DNA of 64,000 nt from Solirubrobacteraceae bacterium (GTDB taxonomy: Bacteria > Actinomycetota > Thermoleophilia > Solirubrobacterales > Solirubrobacteraceae): assembly GCA_035948355.1 (NCBI GenBank), contig DASZJF010000037.1, positions 5,019 through 69,018 on the forward strand, in the 5' to 3' direction. Below, in pieces: positions 34,162 through 63,708 of the stretch (its first letter is position 1; each line of letters opens with the position of its first letter). The translations under genes and the position numbers were made by a program. A model generated the notes under the pieces. It ran no database searches. It saw only the letters and a program-made list of their open reading frames with translations, and had not been told where the DNA came from.

Positions 34162-34296
34162 CTAGCGGTCCGCTGGCACGGCGCCAGCCGGCGTCCTCAG
34201 TCGCTTACCGATCGGAGGTCATCAGGATCCCCGATCGGCCAGCACAGCACACCACGCTCCCTGCGTCCTGGTCTGGCTTGGCCATCGAACCGCTAG
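34162..34296 (+). repeat. Repeat family B copy with nested family C hairpin
   Basis: Closed by CTAGCGGT/ACCGCTAG. Shares GCGTCCTCAGTCGCT and CCACGCTCCCTGCGTCCT with 38165-38265. Confidence 0.75.
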
Positions 34297-34331: not shown

Positions 34332-36008
34332 ATGCGCGCGGTGGACGCAATCATGGAATGCCTGAAGGCCGAGGGCGTGGACGTCGTGTTCGGGCTGCCC
34401 GGCGGGGCGAATTTGCCGACGTACGACGCGTTCGTGAACGGCGGGATCAGGCACATCCTGGTCAGGCACGAGGCCGGCGGCGGGCACGCCGCCCAGGGCT
34501 ATGCGAAGGCGACGGGGAAGGTTGGGGTGGCGTTCGCGACGAGCGGTCCGGGCGCGACGAACCTGATCACGCCGATAACGGACGCGATGATGGATTCGGT
34601 GCCGGTGGTGTTCATCACGGGGCAGGTCAGGACGGAGCTGCTGGGGACGGATGGGTTTCAGGAGGCGGACACGCTGGGGATCACGATCCCGATCGTCAAG
34701 CACTCGTTCATGATCCAGGACCCGCGCGAGATCCCGCGCGCCATCCACGAGGCGTTTCACATCGCCCGCACGGGCCGGCCGGGGCCGGTGCTGGTGGACA
34801 TCCCCCAGGACCTGTCGCGCGCGGAGATCGAGTACGAGCCGGTGACGGATGTACGGCTGCCGGGGTATCAGCCGACGACGGAGGGCAACCAGAAGCAGAT
34901 CCGCCAGGCCGCGAAGGCGCTGGCGGCGGCCAGGCGCCCGGTGATCTATGCGGGCGGGGGCGTGGTGAACGCGAACGCCTCGGCCGAGCTGGTGGAGCTG
35001 GCGGCGTGCGACCGTTTCCCGGTGACGTGCACGCTGATGGGCCTGGGAGCGTTCCCGGCGCCGCACGAGCAGTGGCTGGGGATGCTGGGGATGCATGGGA
35101 CGCGGGCGGCGAACTATGCGATGGACGAGGCCGATTTGATCTGCGCGGTGGGCGCGCGCTTTGACGATCGCATCACGGGGAAGCTGTCGGAGTTCGCGCC
35201 GAAGGCGAAGTTCATCCACATCGATATCGACCCGGCGGAGATCTCGAAGAACGTGCCGGCGCACATCCCGATCGTGGGTGACGCGAAAAATGTGCTGGCG
35301 AAGCTGGCGGTCGAGTACCGGGCGCTGAGCGCCGACGGCGCGCGGCTGGGCGACTGGTGGCAGCGGATCGACGGTTGGAAAGCGAAGTACCCGCTGTCCT
35401 ACGAGGATTCGAAAGACAACGAGATCAAGCCCCAGTACATGATCCAGGCGCTGTATGAGGCGACGAAGGGCGAGGCGATCGTCTCCAGCGACGTTGGGCA
35501 GCACCAGATGTGGACGGCGCAGTACTACGACTTCCCGGCGCCGCGGCGCTGGATCAACTCGGGCGGCCTCGGGACGATGGGGTTCGGGCTGCCGGCGGCG
35601 ATGGGCGCCGCGGTGGGCTGTCCCGACAGACTGGTGTGCTGTGTTGCCGGGGACGGGTCGGTGCAGATGAACGCGCAGGAGCTGGCGACGTGCGCGCAGG
35701 AGAAGATCCCGATCAAGGTGTTCATCATGAACAACGGGTTCCTGGGCATGGTGCGCCAGTGGCAGGAGCTGTTCTGGGACGGCAAATACAGTCATGTGGA
35801 GACGGGCGAGTTCCCGGATTTCGTGAAGCTCGCGGAGGCATATGGCGCGACGGGGATGCGCTTCGAGGACAAGACGACGCTGGTGCAGGACATGAAGCGC
35901 GCGATCGCGACGGACGGTCCGGTGTTCGTGGACGTGAGGGTGACGCGCGAGGAGAACACTTACCCCATGATCCCTGCGGGCCAGGCCGCGCGCGAGATGG
36001 TTGGGTGA
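34332..36008 (+). CDS. ilvB: Acetolactate synthase large subunit
   Basis: [30 protein letters not shown]-like [30 protein letters not shown]. Confidence 0.98.
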
Positions 36009-36016
36009 CGGCGGCG

Positions 36017-36574
36017 ATGGGTGAACCTGGAACGAAGGCGCCGCTGAGCCTGGAGGAGTTGCAGGCGTCCACGGGGCTGCGCACGGGGCGCAAGCACGTG
36101 CTGTCGATCCTGGTGGAGAACAAGTCGGGCGTGCTGACGCGGATCGCGGGATTGTTCGCGCGGCGGGGCTTCAACATCGACACGCTGACGGTGGGACCGA
36201 CCGACGACGAGCAGATCTCAAGGGTGACGCTGACGGTGGACGGCGCGCTGCACCCGATCGATCAGGTGACGAAGCAGTTGCACAAGCTCGTGAACGTGCT
36301 GAAGATCAGAGACTTGGAGCCTGGCGACACGGTCTCGCGCGAGCTGGCCCTGTTCAAGGTCTCCGCGGACGGGGCGCAGCGCGGCGAGCTGATGCAGATC
36401 ACGGAGATATTCCGCGGCAAGGTCGTGGACGTGACCAAGCGCTCGGTGATCGTCGAGGTGACGGGCACGACGGAGAAGATCGAGGCGTTCGAGGGCATGG
36501 TGCGCCCGTTCGGCCTGATCGAGATGATGAGGACCGGAGAGATAGCAATATCGCGCGGGCGCACGGAGACGTAG
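36017..36574 (+). CDS. ilvN: Acetolactate synthase small subunit
   Basis: LVENKSGVLTRIAGLFARRGFNI, QVTKQLHKL, IEMMRTG. Confidence 0.97.
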   Translation: MGEPGTKAPLSLEELQASTGLRTGRKHVLSILVENKSGVLTRIAGLFARRGFNIDTLTVGPTDDEQISRVTLTVDGALHPIDQVTKQLHKLVNVLKIRDLEPGDTVSRELALFKVSADGAQRGELMQITEIFRGKVVDVTKRSVIVEVTGTTEKIEAFEGMVRPFGLIEMMRTGEIAISRGRTET

Positions 36575-36592
36575 GAACGCGCAAGAGGACGC

Positions 36593-36658
36593 GGGCTTTG
36601 GTGGGTAAGCCAGAGCCAGTCGTTGCATCGAGTTGCGGTCCAAGCCGCTTACCGCAGC
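36593..36658 (+). promoter_or_regulatory. Structured motif family D copy upstream of menF
   Basis: TGCGGTCCAAGCCGCTTACCGCAGC is a 24/25 match to the reverse complement of 44879-44903; the preceding GGTGGGTRAGCCA is also shared. Confidence 0.55.
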
Positions 36659-36704
36659 TGTAGACATTGCGAGAGCTTTGAACGGCAGAAGAGCGATAAC
36701 CGAC

Positions 36705-38168
36705 ATGCAGCGCCTGGAGGGTCCGTTCGCGCTGAGCGAGCAGGATCGCGAAAGGATGGGGGCGCGGCTGGATCTGGCGCTGCGCAGAGCCAGGCGCAGC
36801 GGCGAGCCGACGCTGGCGACGAGCACGGTGCGGTTGCCGGGCACGGTGGACCCGAGCGCCGTGGTGTGTGCGTCGCGTAGACGCGAGGGCGAGCCGTGGT
36901 TCGCGTTCGAGCAGCCCGACCGCGGAGGGGCGGCGCTCGCGGCGCTGGGGGAGGCGGTGGGCCTGAACAGCTCGGGCGAGGAGCGGTTCGCTAGCGTCGC
37001 CGACCGCTGGCGCGGGCTGGCGGCCACAGCGGTGGGGGACCCGCTGGACGATCCCGACCGCTCGGGGCCGGTGGCGGTCGGCGGGTTCGCGTTCGCGCCC
37101 GAAGGCGGCAAGACGCCCGTGTGGGAGGGATTCGACCCGGCCTCGCTGATCGTGCCGGAGGTGGCGATCAGGCGCGCCGCCAAGGGAGCGCGCGAGCGCG
37201 ATCGTGACGAGGGGGACGTGAGGCTGACGCTGGCGGCGCTGATGGCGCCGGACGACACCTCCGAAGAGGCGCTGGAGCGACTGGAAGGGCGCTTAGCGGA
37301 GCTGAGAGAGCAGACGCTGCCGCTGCTGGACCCGGCGCCGACGGGCAGGTACAGCGTGGGGAGCGCGATGCCGCCCGAGCACTACGAGGCGGCGGTGGAA
37401 CACGCGACGGCGCTGATACGAGAGGGCAGGCTGGAAAAGATCGTGCTCGCGCGCGAGGTGGAGGCGCACGCGCCGCGGAAGTATGACCCGGCGGCGATGC
37501 TGGGCGTGCTGCGCGAGGCGTTCCCGGAGTGCTTCTGTTTCTGCGTGGGGCGCGGGGACGCAACGCTGATCGCCGCGAGCCCCGAGCTGTTGGTGCGCCG
37601 CGAGGGCCACCGCGTGAGCACGCTGGCGCTCGCGGGCTCGACCAGACGCAGCGCCGATCCCGCGGTGGACGCCCATCTGGGGGAGCAGCTGCTGCGCGAC
37701 GAGAGCTATCGCTCCGAGCACGCGATCGTCGCGCGACGGATCGAGCGCACGCTGCGCCCGCACGCGGTGTGGGTGGCGGCGGCGCCGGAGCCGGAGCTGG
37801 TGAAGATCGCCAACATCCAGCACCTGGCGACCCCGATCCGCGCGCAGCTCGCAGCTCCAATAGATGCGGTCGAGCTGGCGGGGCTGATGCACCCGACGCC
37901 GGCGGTCGGGGGAGAGCCTCGCGATGTCGCGACCCCACTTATCCCGGCGCTGGAGGGGTTGGACCGCGGCTGGTACGCGGGTCCGGTCGGGTGGACGGAC
38001 GCGACCGGGGACGGCGAGTTCTGCGTGGCGCTGCGCTGCGCGCTGCTGCGCGAGAACGTGGCGCGCTGCTATGCGGGCAACGGGATCGTGCGCGACTCGA
38101 ATCCGCAGGCGGAGTTGGCCGAGACCGAGGTCAAGCTGCAGGCCCTGCTGCCGCTACTGGCCGGCTGA
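36705..38168 (+). CDS. menF: Isochorismate synthase
   Basis: KIVLAR, ASPELL, ALAGSTRR, HLATP, HPTPAVGG, RGWYAG, YAGNGIV; within the men cluster. Confidence 0.92.
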   Translation: MQRLEGPFALSEQDRERMGARLDLALRRARRSGEPTLATSTVRLPGTVDPSAVVCASRRREGEPWFAFEQPDRGGAALAALGEAVGLNSSGEERFASVADRWRGLAATAVGDPLDDPDRSGPVAVGGFAFAPEGGKTPVWEGFDPASLIVPEVAIRRAAKGARERDRDEGDVRLTLAALMAPDDTSEEALERLEGRLAELREQTLPLLDPAPTGRYSVGSAMPPEHYEAAVEHATALIREGRLEKIVLAREVEAHAPRKYDPAAMLGVLREAFPECFCFCVGRGDATLIAASPELLVRREGHRVSTLALAGSTRRSADPAVDAHLGEQLLRDESYRSEHAIVARRIERTLRPHAVWVAAAPEPELVKIANIQHLATPIRAQLAAPIDAVELAGLMHPTPAVGGEPRDVATPLIPALEGLDRGWYAGPVGWTDATGDGEFCVALRCALLRENVARCYAGNGIVRDSNPQAELAETEVKLQALLPLLAG

Positions 38169-38265
38169 GCGGCGTTGAGCGGCGCATCTCTGCGTCCTCA
38201 GTCGCTCGCGTACGTCGTACGCCACGCTCCCTGCGTCCTTGACCTGCTTGCCCAACGCCGCTCAG
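38165..38265 (+). repeat. Repeat family B copy between convergent menF and mmpL
   Basis: Perfect 13-bp closing IR CTGAGCGGCGTTG/CAACGCCGCTCAG enclosing the family B core motifs. Confidence 0.75.
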
Positions 38266-43814: not shown

Positions 43815-44846
43815 TCACAGCGGGTTGACGCCCAGGCCCGGTCTTAAGGGCAGGGCGATCTTGCCTTGCCTGGCCGGCAGTTGGTCATCGACGTCTTCGA
43901 GCATGCCGAGCGTCGCCAGTCCGCAGGGGGGGACCGGGCCGCGCGAGGCGAGAGCCGCCGCCGCGTGCAGTGCGGCCGCCACCCCCAGCGGGCCGTCCAG
44001 CGTCGAGGCTACGTAGGGCTCCGCTCCGGAGGCGCGCACGAGCGCCGCCGCCGCCAGCAGGCCCGAGATCCCACCGCAGCTGCCGATCTTCAGACACACG
44101 GCATCGGCCACCCCCGCGCCGAGCGCGCCGTGCTCCGTCGCGGTCTCATCGATCGCGATCCGCGTGCTCACGCGCTCACGCACCTCTCTGATCGCGTGCA
44201 GCCCGTGAGTCGGCTCCTCCACCAGCTCCAGCCCGGCGGGCGCCAGCGCTTCGATCGTCCTCACGGCCTCCTCGACCGTCCACGCGCCGTTGGCGTCCAA
44301 CCGCAGGGCGATCTCCGCGCCCGCGGCCGCACGCACGGCCGCGACGCGCGCCGCGTCATCGCCCGTGCCGACCTTCACCTTGATGCACCCATACCCCGCT
44401 TCCGCGGCTGCCTGGGCCTGTTCGGCCGCGCCCCTGCGGTCGGTCGCGCCGATCGTCGCGTTCACGCTCACCTCGCCGGTGGGGTCGTCGGTGAGCAGAT
44501 TCGCGACCGGCTTGTTCGCGCGCCTGCCCGCGCGGTCCCACAGGGCCATGTCGATCGCCGCCAGCGCCTGGGGCAGGTCATCCTCGCGCCGGCACGCTTC
44601 CACGATCTGCACCCCGCTCATGCCCTGCGTGTTCCCGAGCGCGTCTCTGTAGCGCTCGAGCGCGTTCTCCACTCTCGTGACGCTGACGCCGTCGTACTGC
44701 TCCAGCGGCGCGGCTTCGCCGTATCCCGTCGGCCCCTCTTCATCGGCGAGCGTCACCATCACCAGCTCGCGCTCCTCCACCGTGCCGTGCGCCGTCTCCA
44801 GCGGTTTTCGCAACCGCACCGTCCTGCGCTCGACGCTCAATTTCAT
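43815..44846 (-). CDS. menC: o-succinylbenzoate synthase (enolase superfamily)
   Basis: GEAAPL, IKVKVG, LRLDANG, VEEP, AIDET, LKIG; within the men cluster. Confidence 0.85.
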   Translation of the reverse strand: MKLSVERRTVRLRKPLETAHGTVEERELVMVTLADEEGPTGYGEAAPLEQYDGVSVTRVENALERYRDALGNTQGMSGVQIVEACRREDDLPQALAAIDMALWDRAGRRANKPVANLLTDDPTGEVSVNATIGATDRRGAAEQAQAAAEAGYGCIKVKVGTGDDAARVAAVRAAAGAEIALRLDANGAWTVEEAVRTIEALAPAGLELVEEPTHGLHAIREVRERVSTRIAIDETATEHGALGAGVADAVCLKIGSCGGISGLLAAAALVRASGAEPYVASTLDGPLGVAAALHAAAALASRGPVPPCGLATLGMLEDVDDQLPARQGKIALPLRPGLGVNPL

Positions 44847-44878
44847 CTTGCGCCCCTCACGCTTCCGCTATGCCGGCG

Positions 44879-44945
44879 GCTGCGGTGAGCGGCTTGGACC
44901 GCATTCGCTGAAAGGGCTGACCCATGGCTCACCCACCCATCAGCC
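44879..44945 (-). promoter_or_regulatory. Structured motif family D copy upstream of menC
   Basis: The reverse complement aligns with 36593-36658. Confidence 0.55.
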
Positions 44946-44967: not shown

Positions 44968-45921
44968 TCAGATCCCGCCGCTCGCGAGGATCCCCGCCGC
45001 GAACAACAGGCAGAACAGCAGCTGCAGCATGCCCGTCTTCGCCAGCGCGCCGTTCAGGGCCGGGCCGTCCACCCGCGTCCTCACCGTCCTCACGACCCCC
45101 ACCGCGAGCGGGATCGCCGCCCAGCTGAGCAGCAGCCACGGCGACATGCCCAGCGCCCACAGCACCGGTGCGCTCACGAACGCGCTTATCGCCATCGCCG
45201 TATACAGGGCTCTCGTGCGTTCCCTTCCCAGTCTGACCGCGAGCGTGCGCTTGCCCGCGCGCCTGTCAGTGTCGATGTCCCTGACGTTGTTCACCACCAG
45301 GATCGCGCTCGCCAGCAGCCCCACCGGCACGGCGCACCCGAACGCCTGCCACGGCAGCTCCTGCACCTGCACGAAATACGAGCCCGTCACCGCGACCACG
45401 CCGAAGAACAGGAACACGAACACCTCGCCCAATCCCTCATACCCGTACGGCCGCGGTCCGCCCGTGTACAGCACGCCCGCGAGAATCGACGCCGCACCGA
45501 CCGCGATCAGCTCCGGTCCCGCGACCGCCACCAGATACACACCGCACAGCACCGCCAGCCCGAACGTCGCGTACGTCGCGATCAGCACCTGCCTGGGTGG
45601 CACCAGGCCACCCGCCGTAACTCTCACCGGGCCAAGTCGGTCCTCGGTGTCCGCGCCCCGGCGCGCGTCCGAGTAATCGTTCGACAGATTCGTCCCCACC
45701 TGGATGAACACCGCCCCCAGCAACGCCGCCACGAACGCCAACGGGTGAAACACGCCCGCGCCCAACGCCAGCGACGTTCCCACAAGCACCGGCGCGACCG
45801 CTGCCGGCAGTGTCCGTATTCGTGCGGCCATCACCCAGATCCGCACCATGCTCGGGCGGTCGGTCATGCCTGTGTCGCCCGGCGCCGTGAGCGTCGAAGT
45901 GCTCTGCATCGCCGTGCTCAC
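44968..45921 (-). CDS. menA: 1,4-dihydroxy-2-naphthoate polyprenyltransferase
   Basis: [49 protein letters not shown]. Confidence 0.95.
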
Positions 45922-60734: not shown

Positions 60735-62342
60735 ATGTCCCCTATCCAGGTCTACGACGCGACCCTGCGTGACGGCATGGGCGGTGGCGGCATGACGCTG
60801 ACGGCCGCGGAGAAGGTTCGGGTCGTGCACGCGCTCGACGCGCTCGGCGTGCACATGATCGAGGCGGGGTTTCCCGCGTCCAACCCGAAGGAGATCGAGC
60901 TGTTCGAGCTGCTCGAGCGAGAGACGTTGCAGAACGCTGAGGTGGTCGCGTTCGGGATGACGCGCCGGCGTGGCGTGGACGCCGCCGAGGACGAGGGGTT
61001 GCGCGTGCTCGCGGAGTCGTTCGTGCCCGTGTGCACGCTCGTCGGCAAGAGTTCGGTGCTGCAGGCCGAGACCGTGTTGAAGGTGACGCGCGCGGAGAAT
61101 CTGGGCATGATCGGCGAGTCGATCGCGCTGCTAGTGGCCCGTGGCAAGCGGGTGCTGTTCGACGCCGAGCACTTCTTCGACGGGATCGAGGAAGACGTCG
61201 GCTACGCCCTGGAATGCGTGCGCGTCGCGGCGGACGCCGGCGCCGAGCGGGTCGTGCTGTGCGACACGAATGGGGGATCGCTGCCGCTGGACGTGCGCGA
61301 AGCGGTCGAGGCGGTGCGCGAGCAGATGCCGGATGTTCCGCTCGGGGTGCACACCCATGACGACACCGGCTGCGGCGTGGCGAACACGCTCGTGGCGGTG
61401 CAGGCGGGCGCCACGCAGGTGCAGGGGACGATCAACGGCATCGGCGAGCGCACGGGCAACGCCAACCTCGTCACGATCGTCGCCGACCTGCAGTTGAAGA
61501 TGGGGTACGAGGTGCTGCCGGCCGAGCGCTTGGCGCGACTCACGGAGACCGCGCATTTCGTCGACGAGCTGCTGAACCGGACGCCCGACCCGGGGCAGCC
61601 ATATGTGGGAAAGCACGCGTTTGCGCACAAGGCCGGCATGCACGCCGCGGGGGTGCGCGAGTCAAGCGCTGCGTTTGAGCACGTCGACCCGGCGCTGGTC
61701 GGCAATCGCAGCGACGTGTTGATCTCCGAGCTGTCGGGGCGCGCCACGATCGTGGAGAAGGCACGCGCGGCGGGGATCGCCGCCGATGAGGAGTTCACCC
61801 GGCGCGTGGTCGAGCGGGTGAAGGAGCTCGAGCACAAGGGGTTTCAGTTCGAGGCGGCGGACGGGTCGTTCGAGCTGCTCATGCGGCGGGAGGCCGGTGG
61901 TGATCTCGAGTACGAGCCGCTGTTCAAGTTGGAGTCCTGGCGGGTGATCGTCGAAAAGCACGCCGATGGGCGGGCTACCACCGAGGCGACGATCAAGATC
62001 TGGGTTGGCGGCGATCGGTATGTGCGCACCGCCGAGGGGAACGGTCCGGTTCATGCTCTGGACAAGGCGCTGCGCGACGCGATCGGGGAGATTCACCCGC
62101 ATCTGAAGGACATCGACCTGGTCAACTTCAAGGTGCGGATCCTCGATGAGACGAAGGGGACCGGGGCTGTTACCCGGGTGCTGATCGATGCCTCGGATGG
62201 GAAGGATGTTTGGGGGTCGATTGGGGTTTCCGAGAACCTTATCGCCGCCTCTTGGGATGCGCTGGTGGATTCGCTGGAGCGTGGAATGTTGGGCGGCAAG
62301 CCCTCGTCGGTTGCGACGCTACGCTCGGCCGGGAGTGGCTAG
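60735..62342 (+). CDS. cimA: Citramalate synthase
   Basis: YDATLRDG, FDAEHFFDG, LCDTNGG, HKAGMH, FEAADGSFELL, AEGNGPV; second LeuA paralogue of the bacterial CimA type. Confidence 0.88.
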   Translation: MSPIQVYDATLRDGMGGGGMTLTAAEKVRVVHALDALGVHMIEAGFPASNPKEIELFELLERETLQNAEVVAFGMTRRRGVDAAEDEGLRVLAESFVPVCTLVGKSSVLQAETVLKVTRAENLGMIGESIALLVARGKRVLFDAEHFFDGIEEDVGYALECVRVAADAGAERVVLCDTNGGSLPLDVREAVEAVREQMPDVPLGVHTHDDTGCGVANTLVAVQAGATQVQGTINGIGERTGNANLVTIVADLQLKMGYEVLPAERLARLTETAHFVDELLNRTPDPGQPYVGKHAFAHKAGMHAAGVRESSAAFEHVDPALVGNRSDVLISELSGRATIVEKARAAGIAADEEFTRRVVERVKELEHKGFQFEAADGSFELLMRREAGGDLEYEPLFKLESWRVIVEKHADGRATTEATIKIWVGGDRYVRTAEGNGPVHALDKALRDAIGEIHPHLKDIDLVNFKVRILDETKGTGAVTRVLIDASDGKDVWGSIGVSENLIAASWDALVDSLERGMLGGKPSSVATLRSAGSG

Positions 62343-62386
62343 TGCAGGGCTCGGGTGCGGCCGCGGGCTCGGTGCCGGCCGATCGG

Positions 62387-63553
62387 ATGTCGAATCGCCG
62401 AGGAACTGAGGACAGCGGTGGGGACGCCGGCGCTTCCGACCCTATTCCTCTCGCTAAACCCGTATTGGGGGAGGCCGAGGAGCTGGCCGTGTTGGAGGTG
62501 CTGCGCTCGGGGCAGTTGTCGCTGGGGTCTCGGGTGGGGGAGTTCGAGCGCCTGTTTGCAGCTCGGGTCGAGGCAGAGCATGCATGTGCTGTGAGCAGTG
62601 GGACCGCTGGGCTGCATCTTGCGCTGCGGGCGGTGGGGGTTGAGGCTGGGGATGAGGTGATCACGAGCCCGTTCTCGTTCGTGGCTTCGGCCAACGCCGC
62701 TGTGTATGAGGGGGCTCGGCCGGTTTTTGCCGATATCGATCCGGTTACGCTGAACCTCGATCCGGCCGCGGCGGAGGCTGCGATCACCTCGCGGACGAAG
62801 GCCATCTTGCCGGTGCATATCTTTGGCTATCCCGCCGACATGGCCGCGTTTGAGCGGATCAGCGCGGCGCATGAGCTGGGGATCGTCGAGGACGCGTGCG
62901 AGGCGCTCGGGGCTGTGCATGGGGATAATGGGGTGGCTGTGGGCGCGCGCGGGCATCCGGCGGTGTTCGGGTTTTACGCCAACAAGCAGATCACGACGGG
63001 CGAGGGAGGGATGGTCACCCTCGGCGACGGGGAGCTGAAGGAGCGGATCGATTCCGAGCGCAATCAGGGTCGGGCCAAGGACATGGGCTGGCTCGATCAC
63101 GACCGGCTGGGGTTCAACTACCGGCTGTCGGACATCGCCTGTGCGCTGGGGATCGCTCAGCTGGGGCGCCTGGAGGAGATGCTCGCCGGGCGGGCTCTCG
63201 TGGCCGGCCGGTATCGGGAGGCGCTCGCCGGCGTCGAGGGGCTGGGGCTGCCCTGTATGGACATGGATGGGGATCGGCGGGGGTGGTTTGTGTTCGTCGT
63301 GCAGTTGCCCGCAGGGGTGGCGCGAGACACGGTCCTACGTAGGCTTGCCGAGAACGGCATCCAGAGCAAGCCGTATCTGCCCGCCATTCACCTGATGGGC
63401 TACTACCGCGAGCGGTTCGGCCATCGGTCGGGTCAGTTGCCCGTGTGCGAGGACGTGGCGGCGCGTTCGCTGGCGCTGCCGTTCTTCCCGGAGATGACTA
63501 CGAGTCAGGTTGAACGGGTGGCTCGCGAGCTGGCTCGGGCGGTGGGGCGGTAG
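62387..63553 (+). CDS. DegT/DnrJ/EryC1/StrS family aminotransferase
   Basis: VSSGTAGLHLA, SPFSFVASAN, EDACEALG, FYANKQITTGEGG, GFNYRLSD. Confidence 0.93.
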   Translation: MSNRRGTEDSGGDAGASDPIPLAKPVLGEAEELAVLEVLRSGQLSLGSRVGEFERLFAARVEAEHACAVSSGTAGLHLALRAVGVEAGDEVITSPFSFVASANAAVYEGARPVFADIDPVTLNLDPAAAEAAITSRTKAILPVHIFGYPADMAAFERISAAHELGIVEDACEALGAVHGDNGVAVGARGHPAVFGFYANKQITTGEGGMVTLGDGELKERIDSERNQGRAKDMGWLDHDRLGFNYRLSDIACALGIAQLGRLEEMLAGRALVAGRYREALAGVEGLGLPCMDMDGDRRGWFVFVVQLPAGVARDTVLRRLAENGIQSKPYLPAIHLMGYYRERFGHRSGQLPVCEDVAARSLALPFFPEMTTSQVERVARELARAVGR

Positions 63554-63708
63554 AACCCGGCGAGTGTTTCTGGGTGACCCGCAGCCCGCGGCTTCGAACA
63601 CCGTTGTCGGCGCCGGTCACCGCACGAGGAGGCATCGTCGGGAGCGCTTTTGGGTGGTGTCGGAGCGAGTCGGAGACAATCGTGAGGCGTTCGGAGCGCC
63701 GGACTAGC

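Follow-up and report, generated by a model that had tools for sequence, protein, structure and literature searches.

The locus raises the question of why two genes of menaquinone synthesis, menF and menC, are preceded by the same structured motif, and whether this motif regulates them. In the window, by which we mean the whole stretch of 64,000 nt that was analysed, positions 36593-36658 (+) and the reverse complement of positions 44879-44945 could be aligned along ~65 nt, each with the same orientation towards its downstream gene, menF or menC, as had been described in an earlier reading made from the letters of this DNA (the sequence-only reading). The 25-mer TGCGGTCCAAGCCGCTYACCGCAGC, which occurred exactly twice in the window, was found in none of 100 dinucleotide-preserving shuffles, and the 3′ halves of the menF and menC copies were identical at 24 of 25 positions. 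The gaps of 46 nt to menF and 32 nt to menC were correct against the annotated ATGs, and the identities of the two genes were upheld by Pfam (Chorismate_bind and MR_MLE, respectively). The sequence-only reading had proposed a menaquinone regulatory RNA or operator and had named a fourth repeat family as a fallback; it is the fallback that is favoured by the evidence, namely multiple copies, unrelated neighbours and insertion. We consider it probable (roughly 0.8) that the motif in front of menF and menC is an interspersed non-coding repeat of ~85 nt, restricted to one lineage, whose insertion at gene junctions dates to the ancestor of a subclade and which has been mostly stationary since then.

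The location of the element had been recognised correctly, and its 3′ end had been placed too early: it lies ~18 nt further on, at ~36676 in the menF copy and at ~44860 in the menC copy. The claim that the motif occurs in the window before men genes only did not hold either, as a third and more diverged copy was detected on the + strand, starting 9 nt downstream of where an unrelated ORF (62210-63553) stops. The three copies, the arms of their conserved stem where assigned, and the surrounding genes are listed in Table 1.

Table 1. Repeat copies, stem arms and neighbouring genes in the window
Feature	Position	Strand	Remarks
Repeat copy 1	36592..36676	+	ilvN-menF spacer; TCCAAGCC subfamily; nhmmer E=1e-16, CM 91 bits
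Copy 1 stem, 5′ arm GGTAAGC	36604..36610	+	partner, 36647-36653
Copy 1 stem, 3′ arm GCTTACC	36647..36653	+	partner, 36604-36610
Repeat copy 2	44860..44942	-	menA-like/menC spacer; nhmmer E=2e-16, CM 87.5 bits
Copy 2 stem, 5′ arm GGTGAGC	44927..44933	-	compensated A-to-G / T-to-C change relative to copy 1
Copy 2 stem, 3′ arm GCTCACC	44884..44890	-	partner, 44927-44933
Repeat copy 3	63563..63648	+	GACCC/GGTCACC subfamily; nhmmer E=6e-12, CM 79 bits; more diverged
ilvN, acetolactate synthase small subunit	36005..36574	+	upstream of copy 1; Pfam ALS_ss_C, ACT
menF-like, isochorismate synthase family	36705..38168	+	downstream of copy 1; Pfam Chorismate_bind 6.7e-69
menC-like, MR_MLE family	43815..44846	-	downstream of copy 2; Pfam MR_MLE_C, MR_MLE_N
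menA-like UbiA prenyltransferase	44968..45921	-	stop codon abuts the inserted segment with copy 2; Pfam UbiA

The host genome (G000) is a 2.6-Mb MAG of 49 contigs with 68.6% G+C and a completeness of 95.5%. A 21-mer taken from the motif had 15 sites in it at three or fewer mismatches, and an iterated nhmmer profile (E<1e-6) detected 53 copies, the same number being obtained with a covariance model trained on 40 of them. The conserved core was ~84 nt long (tTtGGTGGGTGAgCCAtAGCCgG...GCgGTCGGCGCCGcTCACCGCAGC.G.CGGC.T..CGgGAGCGcTt), and the whole element measured ~85 nt, or up to ~115 nt with variable linkers; the flanks of the copies carried no conserved motif. Copies were single, with no tandem arrays and no BIME-like clusters. 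The family was essentially intergenic, only one of the ~53 copies being clearly intragenic, and in 20 of the 53 both flanking genes were within 40 nt, indicating that the element fills the spacer. As placed with purpose-made codon-usage log-odds gene calls covering 85% of the genome, 18 copies were codirectional and sense, 15 codirectional and antisense, 15 convergent and 5 divergent, compared with a background of 1540 codirectional, 314 convergent and 307 divergent spacers. There was no bias between sense and antisense (binomial p=0.73), and convergent spacers were preferred to divergent ones (15 vs 5, p=0.04). A run of at least three T residues was present at the 3′ end of just 16 of the 53 copies. 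Genes next to the copies included those for SufBD, SufS, GDP-mannose dehydratase, DegT, a PP-loop ATPase, adenylate cyclase, an AI-2E transporter, an ABC ATPase, a carboxyltransferase, YebC, a nucleotidyltransferase, a GT2 glycosyltransferase, an FGGY kinase, topoisomerase I, a PD-(D/E)XK nuclease, a sigma-70 factor, a translational GTPase, transaldolase and DsbA; these functions are unrelated and make up no single pathway or regulon. The hairpin repeat is multi-copy, is tied to no pathway and has no orientation preference relative to transcription.

When the covariance model was run across 40 relatives, comprising the host's own genus and 16 genomes from five other families of Solirubrobacterales, copies per genome numbered 53 in G000, 54 in G023, 41 in G003, 17 in G008, 5 in G005, 4 in G021, 2 in G007 and 1 in G001, and there were none in 16 other members of the genus and none in the 16 genomes of the five other families. 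A scan of viral contigs for the two-arm pattern gave no matches, and 79 stretches with this pattern were found in a handful of JGI soil metagenomes. Judging from the genomes covered, the family was found only in a subclade of one uncultured genus of soil Solirubrobacteraceae. A literature search for described repeats of Solirubrobacterales found none; the family itself is undescribed, and its kind (REP/REPIN/MITE-like intergenic repeat) is known and ordinary. One more structured repeat family is hereby documented in the uncultured Solirubrobacterales.

Regulation of menaquinone synthesis, by a cis-acting RNA (riboswitch or leader) or an operator common to menF and menC, would agree with the position of the two copies, both of which are sense and directly upstream of men genes, with their being kept at the same, orthologous places in G023 and G003, and with the presence of a covarying stem. 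It is nevertheless hardly credible in view of the ~51 other copies located by unrelated genes, including 15 antisense to the host operon and 15 in convergent spacers, and in view of the corresponding loci in relatives. Enrichment upstream of men or respiratory genes had been proposed as the mark of regulation; upon scanning the genome and its relatives, the element was found upstream of menF in 5 of 80 Solirubrobacterales menF loci, namely in the five closest relatives, and the other 75 were without it. The menA-menC junction was empty in G008 and G015, where menC starts within ~10-15 nt of the stop codon, compared with ~120 extra nt in G000, G023 and G003, and the ilvN-menF spacer was short and element-free in G002, L120 and L129. 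An Rfam search, likewise proposed, returned no match at the gathering threshold in the window (Rfam 15); in E-value mode, matches were at chance level only, the best being a sub-threshold hit of Cupriavidus-1 (30 bits, cut-off 45.5) to one copy, on its reverse strand. Consensus scans of the three window copies predicted no sigma-70-type promoter and no canonical intrinsic terminator. Copies scattered at unrelated genes and absence before men orthologues are the two outcomes that the sequence-only reading had itself named as speaking against a regulatory role, and both were observed, the latter at most of the orthologues. As there is no evidence of a shared menaquinone riboswitch or operator, men annotation and regulon inference should not lean on this motif, by which a tempting false lead on men regulation in soil Actinomycetota is removed. 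The copies at menF and menC would be present as those junctions tolerated insertion, and if they influence men expression at all, this would be a by-product, e.g. of a hairpin transcribed along with the genes or of menF starting at a TTG.

Regarding that start, the menF ATG at 36705 was not kept in the closest relatives (ACG in G023 and AAG in G003), and a TTG in the menF frame, which lies at 36678 within the repeat's 3′ end (GAGAGCTTTG), was conserved in G000, G023 and G003. The menF start codon may be supplied by the 3′ end of the repeat, in which case the gap of 46 nt is possibly no leader. Such repeats mislead start-codon calling, and they fragment MAG assemblies.

Relatives with empty sites were available at six junctions, including the two at the men genes. 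The cleanest case was C13:27385, where two genes overlapped in ATGCCTGA in G008, G014 and G015. In G000, this overlap was split by a 114-nt insert between ATG and CCTGA, which gave the upstream gene a new TAG two codons on and the downstream gene a new ATG, such that ATG was present on both sides of the insert. At C40:99594, C47:13953 and C8:102130, spacers were 5-45 nt in relatives vs 106-190 nt in G000. The flanking genes were left intact by the insertion. A comparable fit is known from the MIRUs of mycobacteria, reportedly described by Supply et al. in 1997, which are said to be operon-oriented, to occur often in tandem arrays and to carry small coupled ORFs. The hairpin family is similar to them in its site at operon junctions and in that the insert keeps or regenerates the stop and start codons on either side (C13:27385), and differs in that its copies stand singly, in both orientations and also between convergent genes.

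Insertion relative to related genomes, together with the small size, the lack of coding capacity and the multiple copies, would be accounted for by a classical MITE, i.e. an IS deletion derivative moved in trans by a DDE transposase and having terminal inverted repeats (TIRs) and a fixed target-site duplication, and one clean site, C13:27385, did show a duplication of ATG (3-nt, possibly 5-nt). However, the other five filled/empty comparisons were too diverged to judge, and no consistent target-site duplication emerged from them. TIRs were absent, as the two ends of the consensus (TTTGGTGGGT... and ...GGGAGCGCTT) show no complementarity and pairing is internal. No cognate IS could be assigned among the transposase families covered (Y1, TnpB, IS110 and DDE_Tnp_1): IS110 and DDE_Tnp_1 occur in the genus in counts that do not track repeat copy number, with no IS110 and one weak DDE_Tnp_1 match in G000 for 53 copies, and no DDE_Tnp_1 in G008 for 17 copies. 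The TnpB zinc-ribbon domain was found in none of 26 genomes of the genus, and the genes between nearby inverted copy pairs were housekeeping genes with no transposase among them. A classical MITE is therefore quite unlikely. Bacterial MITEs (Correia, ERIC and RUP) are small, non-autonomous intergenic insertions which can be co-transcribed, give start and stop signals, and now and then lie in frame inside genes (PMC10969869). Our family resembles them as a small, non-autonomous intergenic insertion that can be co-transcribed, can contribute start and stop signals and has one in-frame copy, and differs from them in the lack of TIRs, of a consistent target-site duplication and of an identifiable parent IS.

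The 2.6-Mb host genome looks very IS-poor (no IS110, Y1 or TnpB, and one weak DDE_Tnp_1 match) despite its wealth of short structured repeats of several families. Some congeners that lack this hairpin repeat have 20-30 IS copies.

The in-frame copy is located on the opposite strand at L248:1287-1396 (G000:C8:29786-29895; CM 82.7 bits), within a variable loop (~aa 92-119) of a conserved Wzy_C / O-antigen-ligase-like membrane protein. The longer form of this loop was common to G000, G023 and G008, and the loop was 20-25 residues shorter in G014, G017 and G004. Hairpin repeats sitting in frame in protein-coding genes are known as the Rickettsia palindromic elements, RPE (PMC10969869). The copy in the Wzy_C-type loop is a likeness to RPE, from which the hairpin family differs by being essentially intergenic.

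The core of the element is predicted to form a long imperfect hairpin. The sole structure predicted by RNAalifold from 40 copies was a 7-bp long-range stem, GGTRASC/GSTYACC, and alignment of 80 copies (G000 and G023) to a model holding only this stem suggests that it is kept paired through compensatory changes. Pair 27:75 was G-C in 50 copies and A-U in 30, and pair 29:73 was G-C in 51 and C-G in 29, neither of them being broken in any of the 80. The covariation score of the stem was higher than those of all 500 shuffles and all slid registers, with the covariation limited to two stem positions and requiring few independent events. An outer extension (20-23 with 80-83) was imperfect, with 87% paired. 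The stem originally proposed, TGCGGT/ACCGCA, was not supported: only 72% of its cells were paired in the 80 copies, which equals the shuffle level, and its central pair was unpaired in 49 of them. The ACC of ACCGCA belongs to the conserved 7-bp stem, with which the TGCGGT/ACCGCA hairpin competes, showing no covariation. Two other candidates were rejected, namely an inner stem, GCCGG/TCGGC, which reached 71% pairing and was disrupted in the TCCAAGCC subfamily, and a pseudoknot of AGCC with the 3′ GGC, which had three conserved pairs and no covariation.

Folding energies of single copies were ordinary for their composition (z = -2.0, +0.6 and -0.7), and when the menF and menC copies were folded to minimum energy, the covarying stem was not used. 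A G-U pair, 41:64, was dominant on the + strand of the element, and this strand was more stable than the - strand by 2.3 kcal/mol (p=0.003). Comparison of sense with antisense copies revealed no dependence of the strand difference in folding energy on host transcription (p=0.31), which counts against selection through host mRNA. It could be that the arms are kept complementary by hairpin-templated or template-switch repair of quasi-palindromes, with no selected function.

REPs are small extragenic imperfect palindromes that are abundant and species-group specific and have a stem kept by complementary changes (Nunvar et al. 2010, PMC2817692). In the REP/REPIN-RAYT system, a GT(A/G)G head is found 5′ of the palindrome, and the RAYT gene is flanked by two inverted copies (PMC2817692). 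The family described here is similarly a short non-coding extragenic palindrome, with tens of copies in a narrow lineage and a size near that of a REP doublet. An element of the REPIN type, in which two inverted REP-like halves fold into a hairpin and a RAYT (Y1) transposase does the copying, would thus be consistent with the size of ~85 nt, the imperfect palindrome, the compensatory stem changes and the mainly extragenic, species-group-specific distribution in tens of copies. However, RAYT (Y1_Tnp, PF01797) was detected in none of six element-bearing genomes, G000, G023 (single contig), G003, G008, G005 and G021, by a search that was positive in 6 of 14 control genomes. There was no GT(A/G)G head, the bases outside the arms being TGGTG and, reverse-complemented, GCTGC, and BIME-like clusters were missing; the copies also appear to be old and positionally stable, not dynamic. 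A REPIN in the strict sense is, therefore, very unlikely. The hairpin family resembles REPINs in architecture and MIRUs in its fit to junctions, yet it lacks defining features of REPINs and MIRUs, and of MITEs as well.

Of 40 copies sampled in G023, 23 could be matched to a G000 copy with collinearity throughout the 1.1-kb test region; the others were mostly in regions that had been rearranged or were lineage-specific. Among these 40 there was no clean site left empty in G000, and no recent presence-absence polymorphism between the two genomes was apparent. These results suggest that the family is largely older than the split of these species, and mobility is deduced solely from more distant comparisons. 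Between G000 and G023, orthologous pairs of the element were 85.7% identical, compared with 79.7% for codon position 3, 78.0% for other intergenic sequence, 94% for codon position 1 and 96.5% for codon position 2. Within the element, the stem arms and the unpaired motifs AGCC, GGC and GAGCG had 0-2 changes in 23 orthologous pairs, and the apical region varied freely.

Changes between orthologues were not confined to single bases. Four orthologous pairs differed by a block switch, TCCAAGCC vs TCGGCGCC (CAA/GGC), which had occurred in both directions, and one pair had a coordinated in-situ switch from G:C to C:G in the stem. Gene conversion among paralogous copies would be the best explanation for such multi-base switches. 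In G023 and G003, the copy at menC carried the other block than it did in G000; gene conversion among copies would also explain both this difference and the 24/25 identity between the two men copies of G000. With its clean filled and empty sites, its covarying stem and its traces of gene conversion, the family is useful for studying spread in systems with no recognisable transposase.

The near-invariance of the arms between orthologues, at silent-site divergence of ~20%, and the identity of the element (86%) against neutral classes (78-80%) raise the possibility that the element is primarily not a selfish relic but a structural module maintained by the host as RNA or DNA, such as an mRNA-stabilising or processing hairpin, a + strand small RNA or a protein-binding cruciform. 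Retention of most copies since the species split, the G-U pair 41:64 on the + strand and the greater stability of this strand whatever the host orientation point in the same direction. On the other hand, orientation to host transcription is random, so that a function in host mRNA would need to work both ways round; folding stability is unexceptional, no promoter or terminator was predicted, and gene conversion among copies is able to mimic constraint. We regard such a module as possible, though doubtful. Rather less likely is a hairpin module that is independent of RAYT and either kept by the host or spread by an undescribed route such as hairpin-templated copying or gene conversion, not a decaying relic, acting as 'punctuation' at junctions with near-invariant arms and a strand asymmetry regardless of host transcription as its signature; were this true, the element would uncouple overlapping genes, supply stop and start signals, and form a strand-specific RNA or DNA structure.

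For the interspersed repeat that we favour, the course of events may have been as follows. The family would have spread as a non-autonomous hairpin element, the mobilising enzyme of which has possibly been lost, and would now be largely immobile. Its persistence may be due to selection or repair preserving the hairpin, as DNA or as RNA, and selection would also have acted against copies damaging neighbouring genes.

Other inserted segments were noticed at or near the junctions compared. In L122:120-345, L150:200-425 and L121:200-280, the ilvN-menF spacer contained a different repeat, TCGGTCGCTCGCGTGCAAAGCAC...CTGCTTGC...CCTCAGG, which resembles window elements at 34162-34296 and 38165-38265; in L121, this repeat adjoins a copy of the hairpin family, suggesting that the ilvN-menF junction is an insertion hot spot. 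The menA-menC junction of G002 (L076:2485-2700) had an unrelated insert of ~130 nt where G000 holds repeat copy 2. At G000:C32:57208-57422, an extra 214 nt following the C32:57115 copy was absent from G023. In G023, L090:617-754 was another segment, of 137 nt, lying directly beside a copy and matching C8:15385-15496 and C10:21921-22032 of G000.
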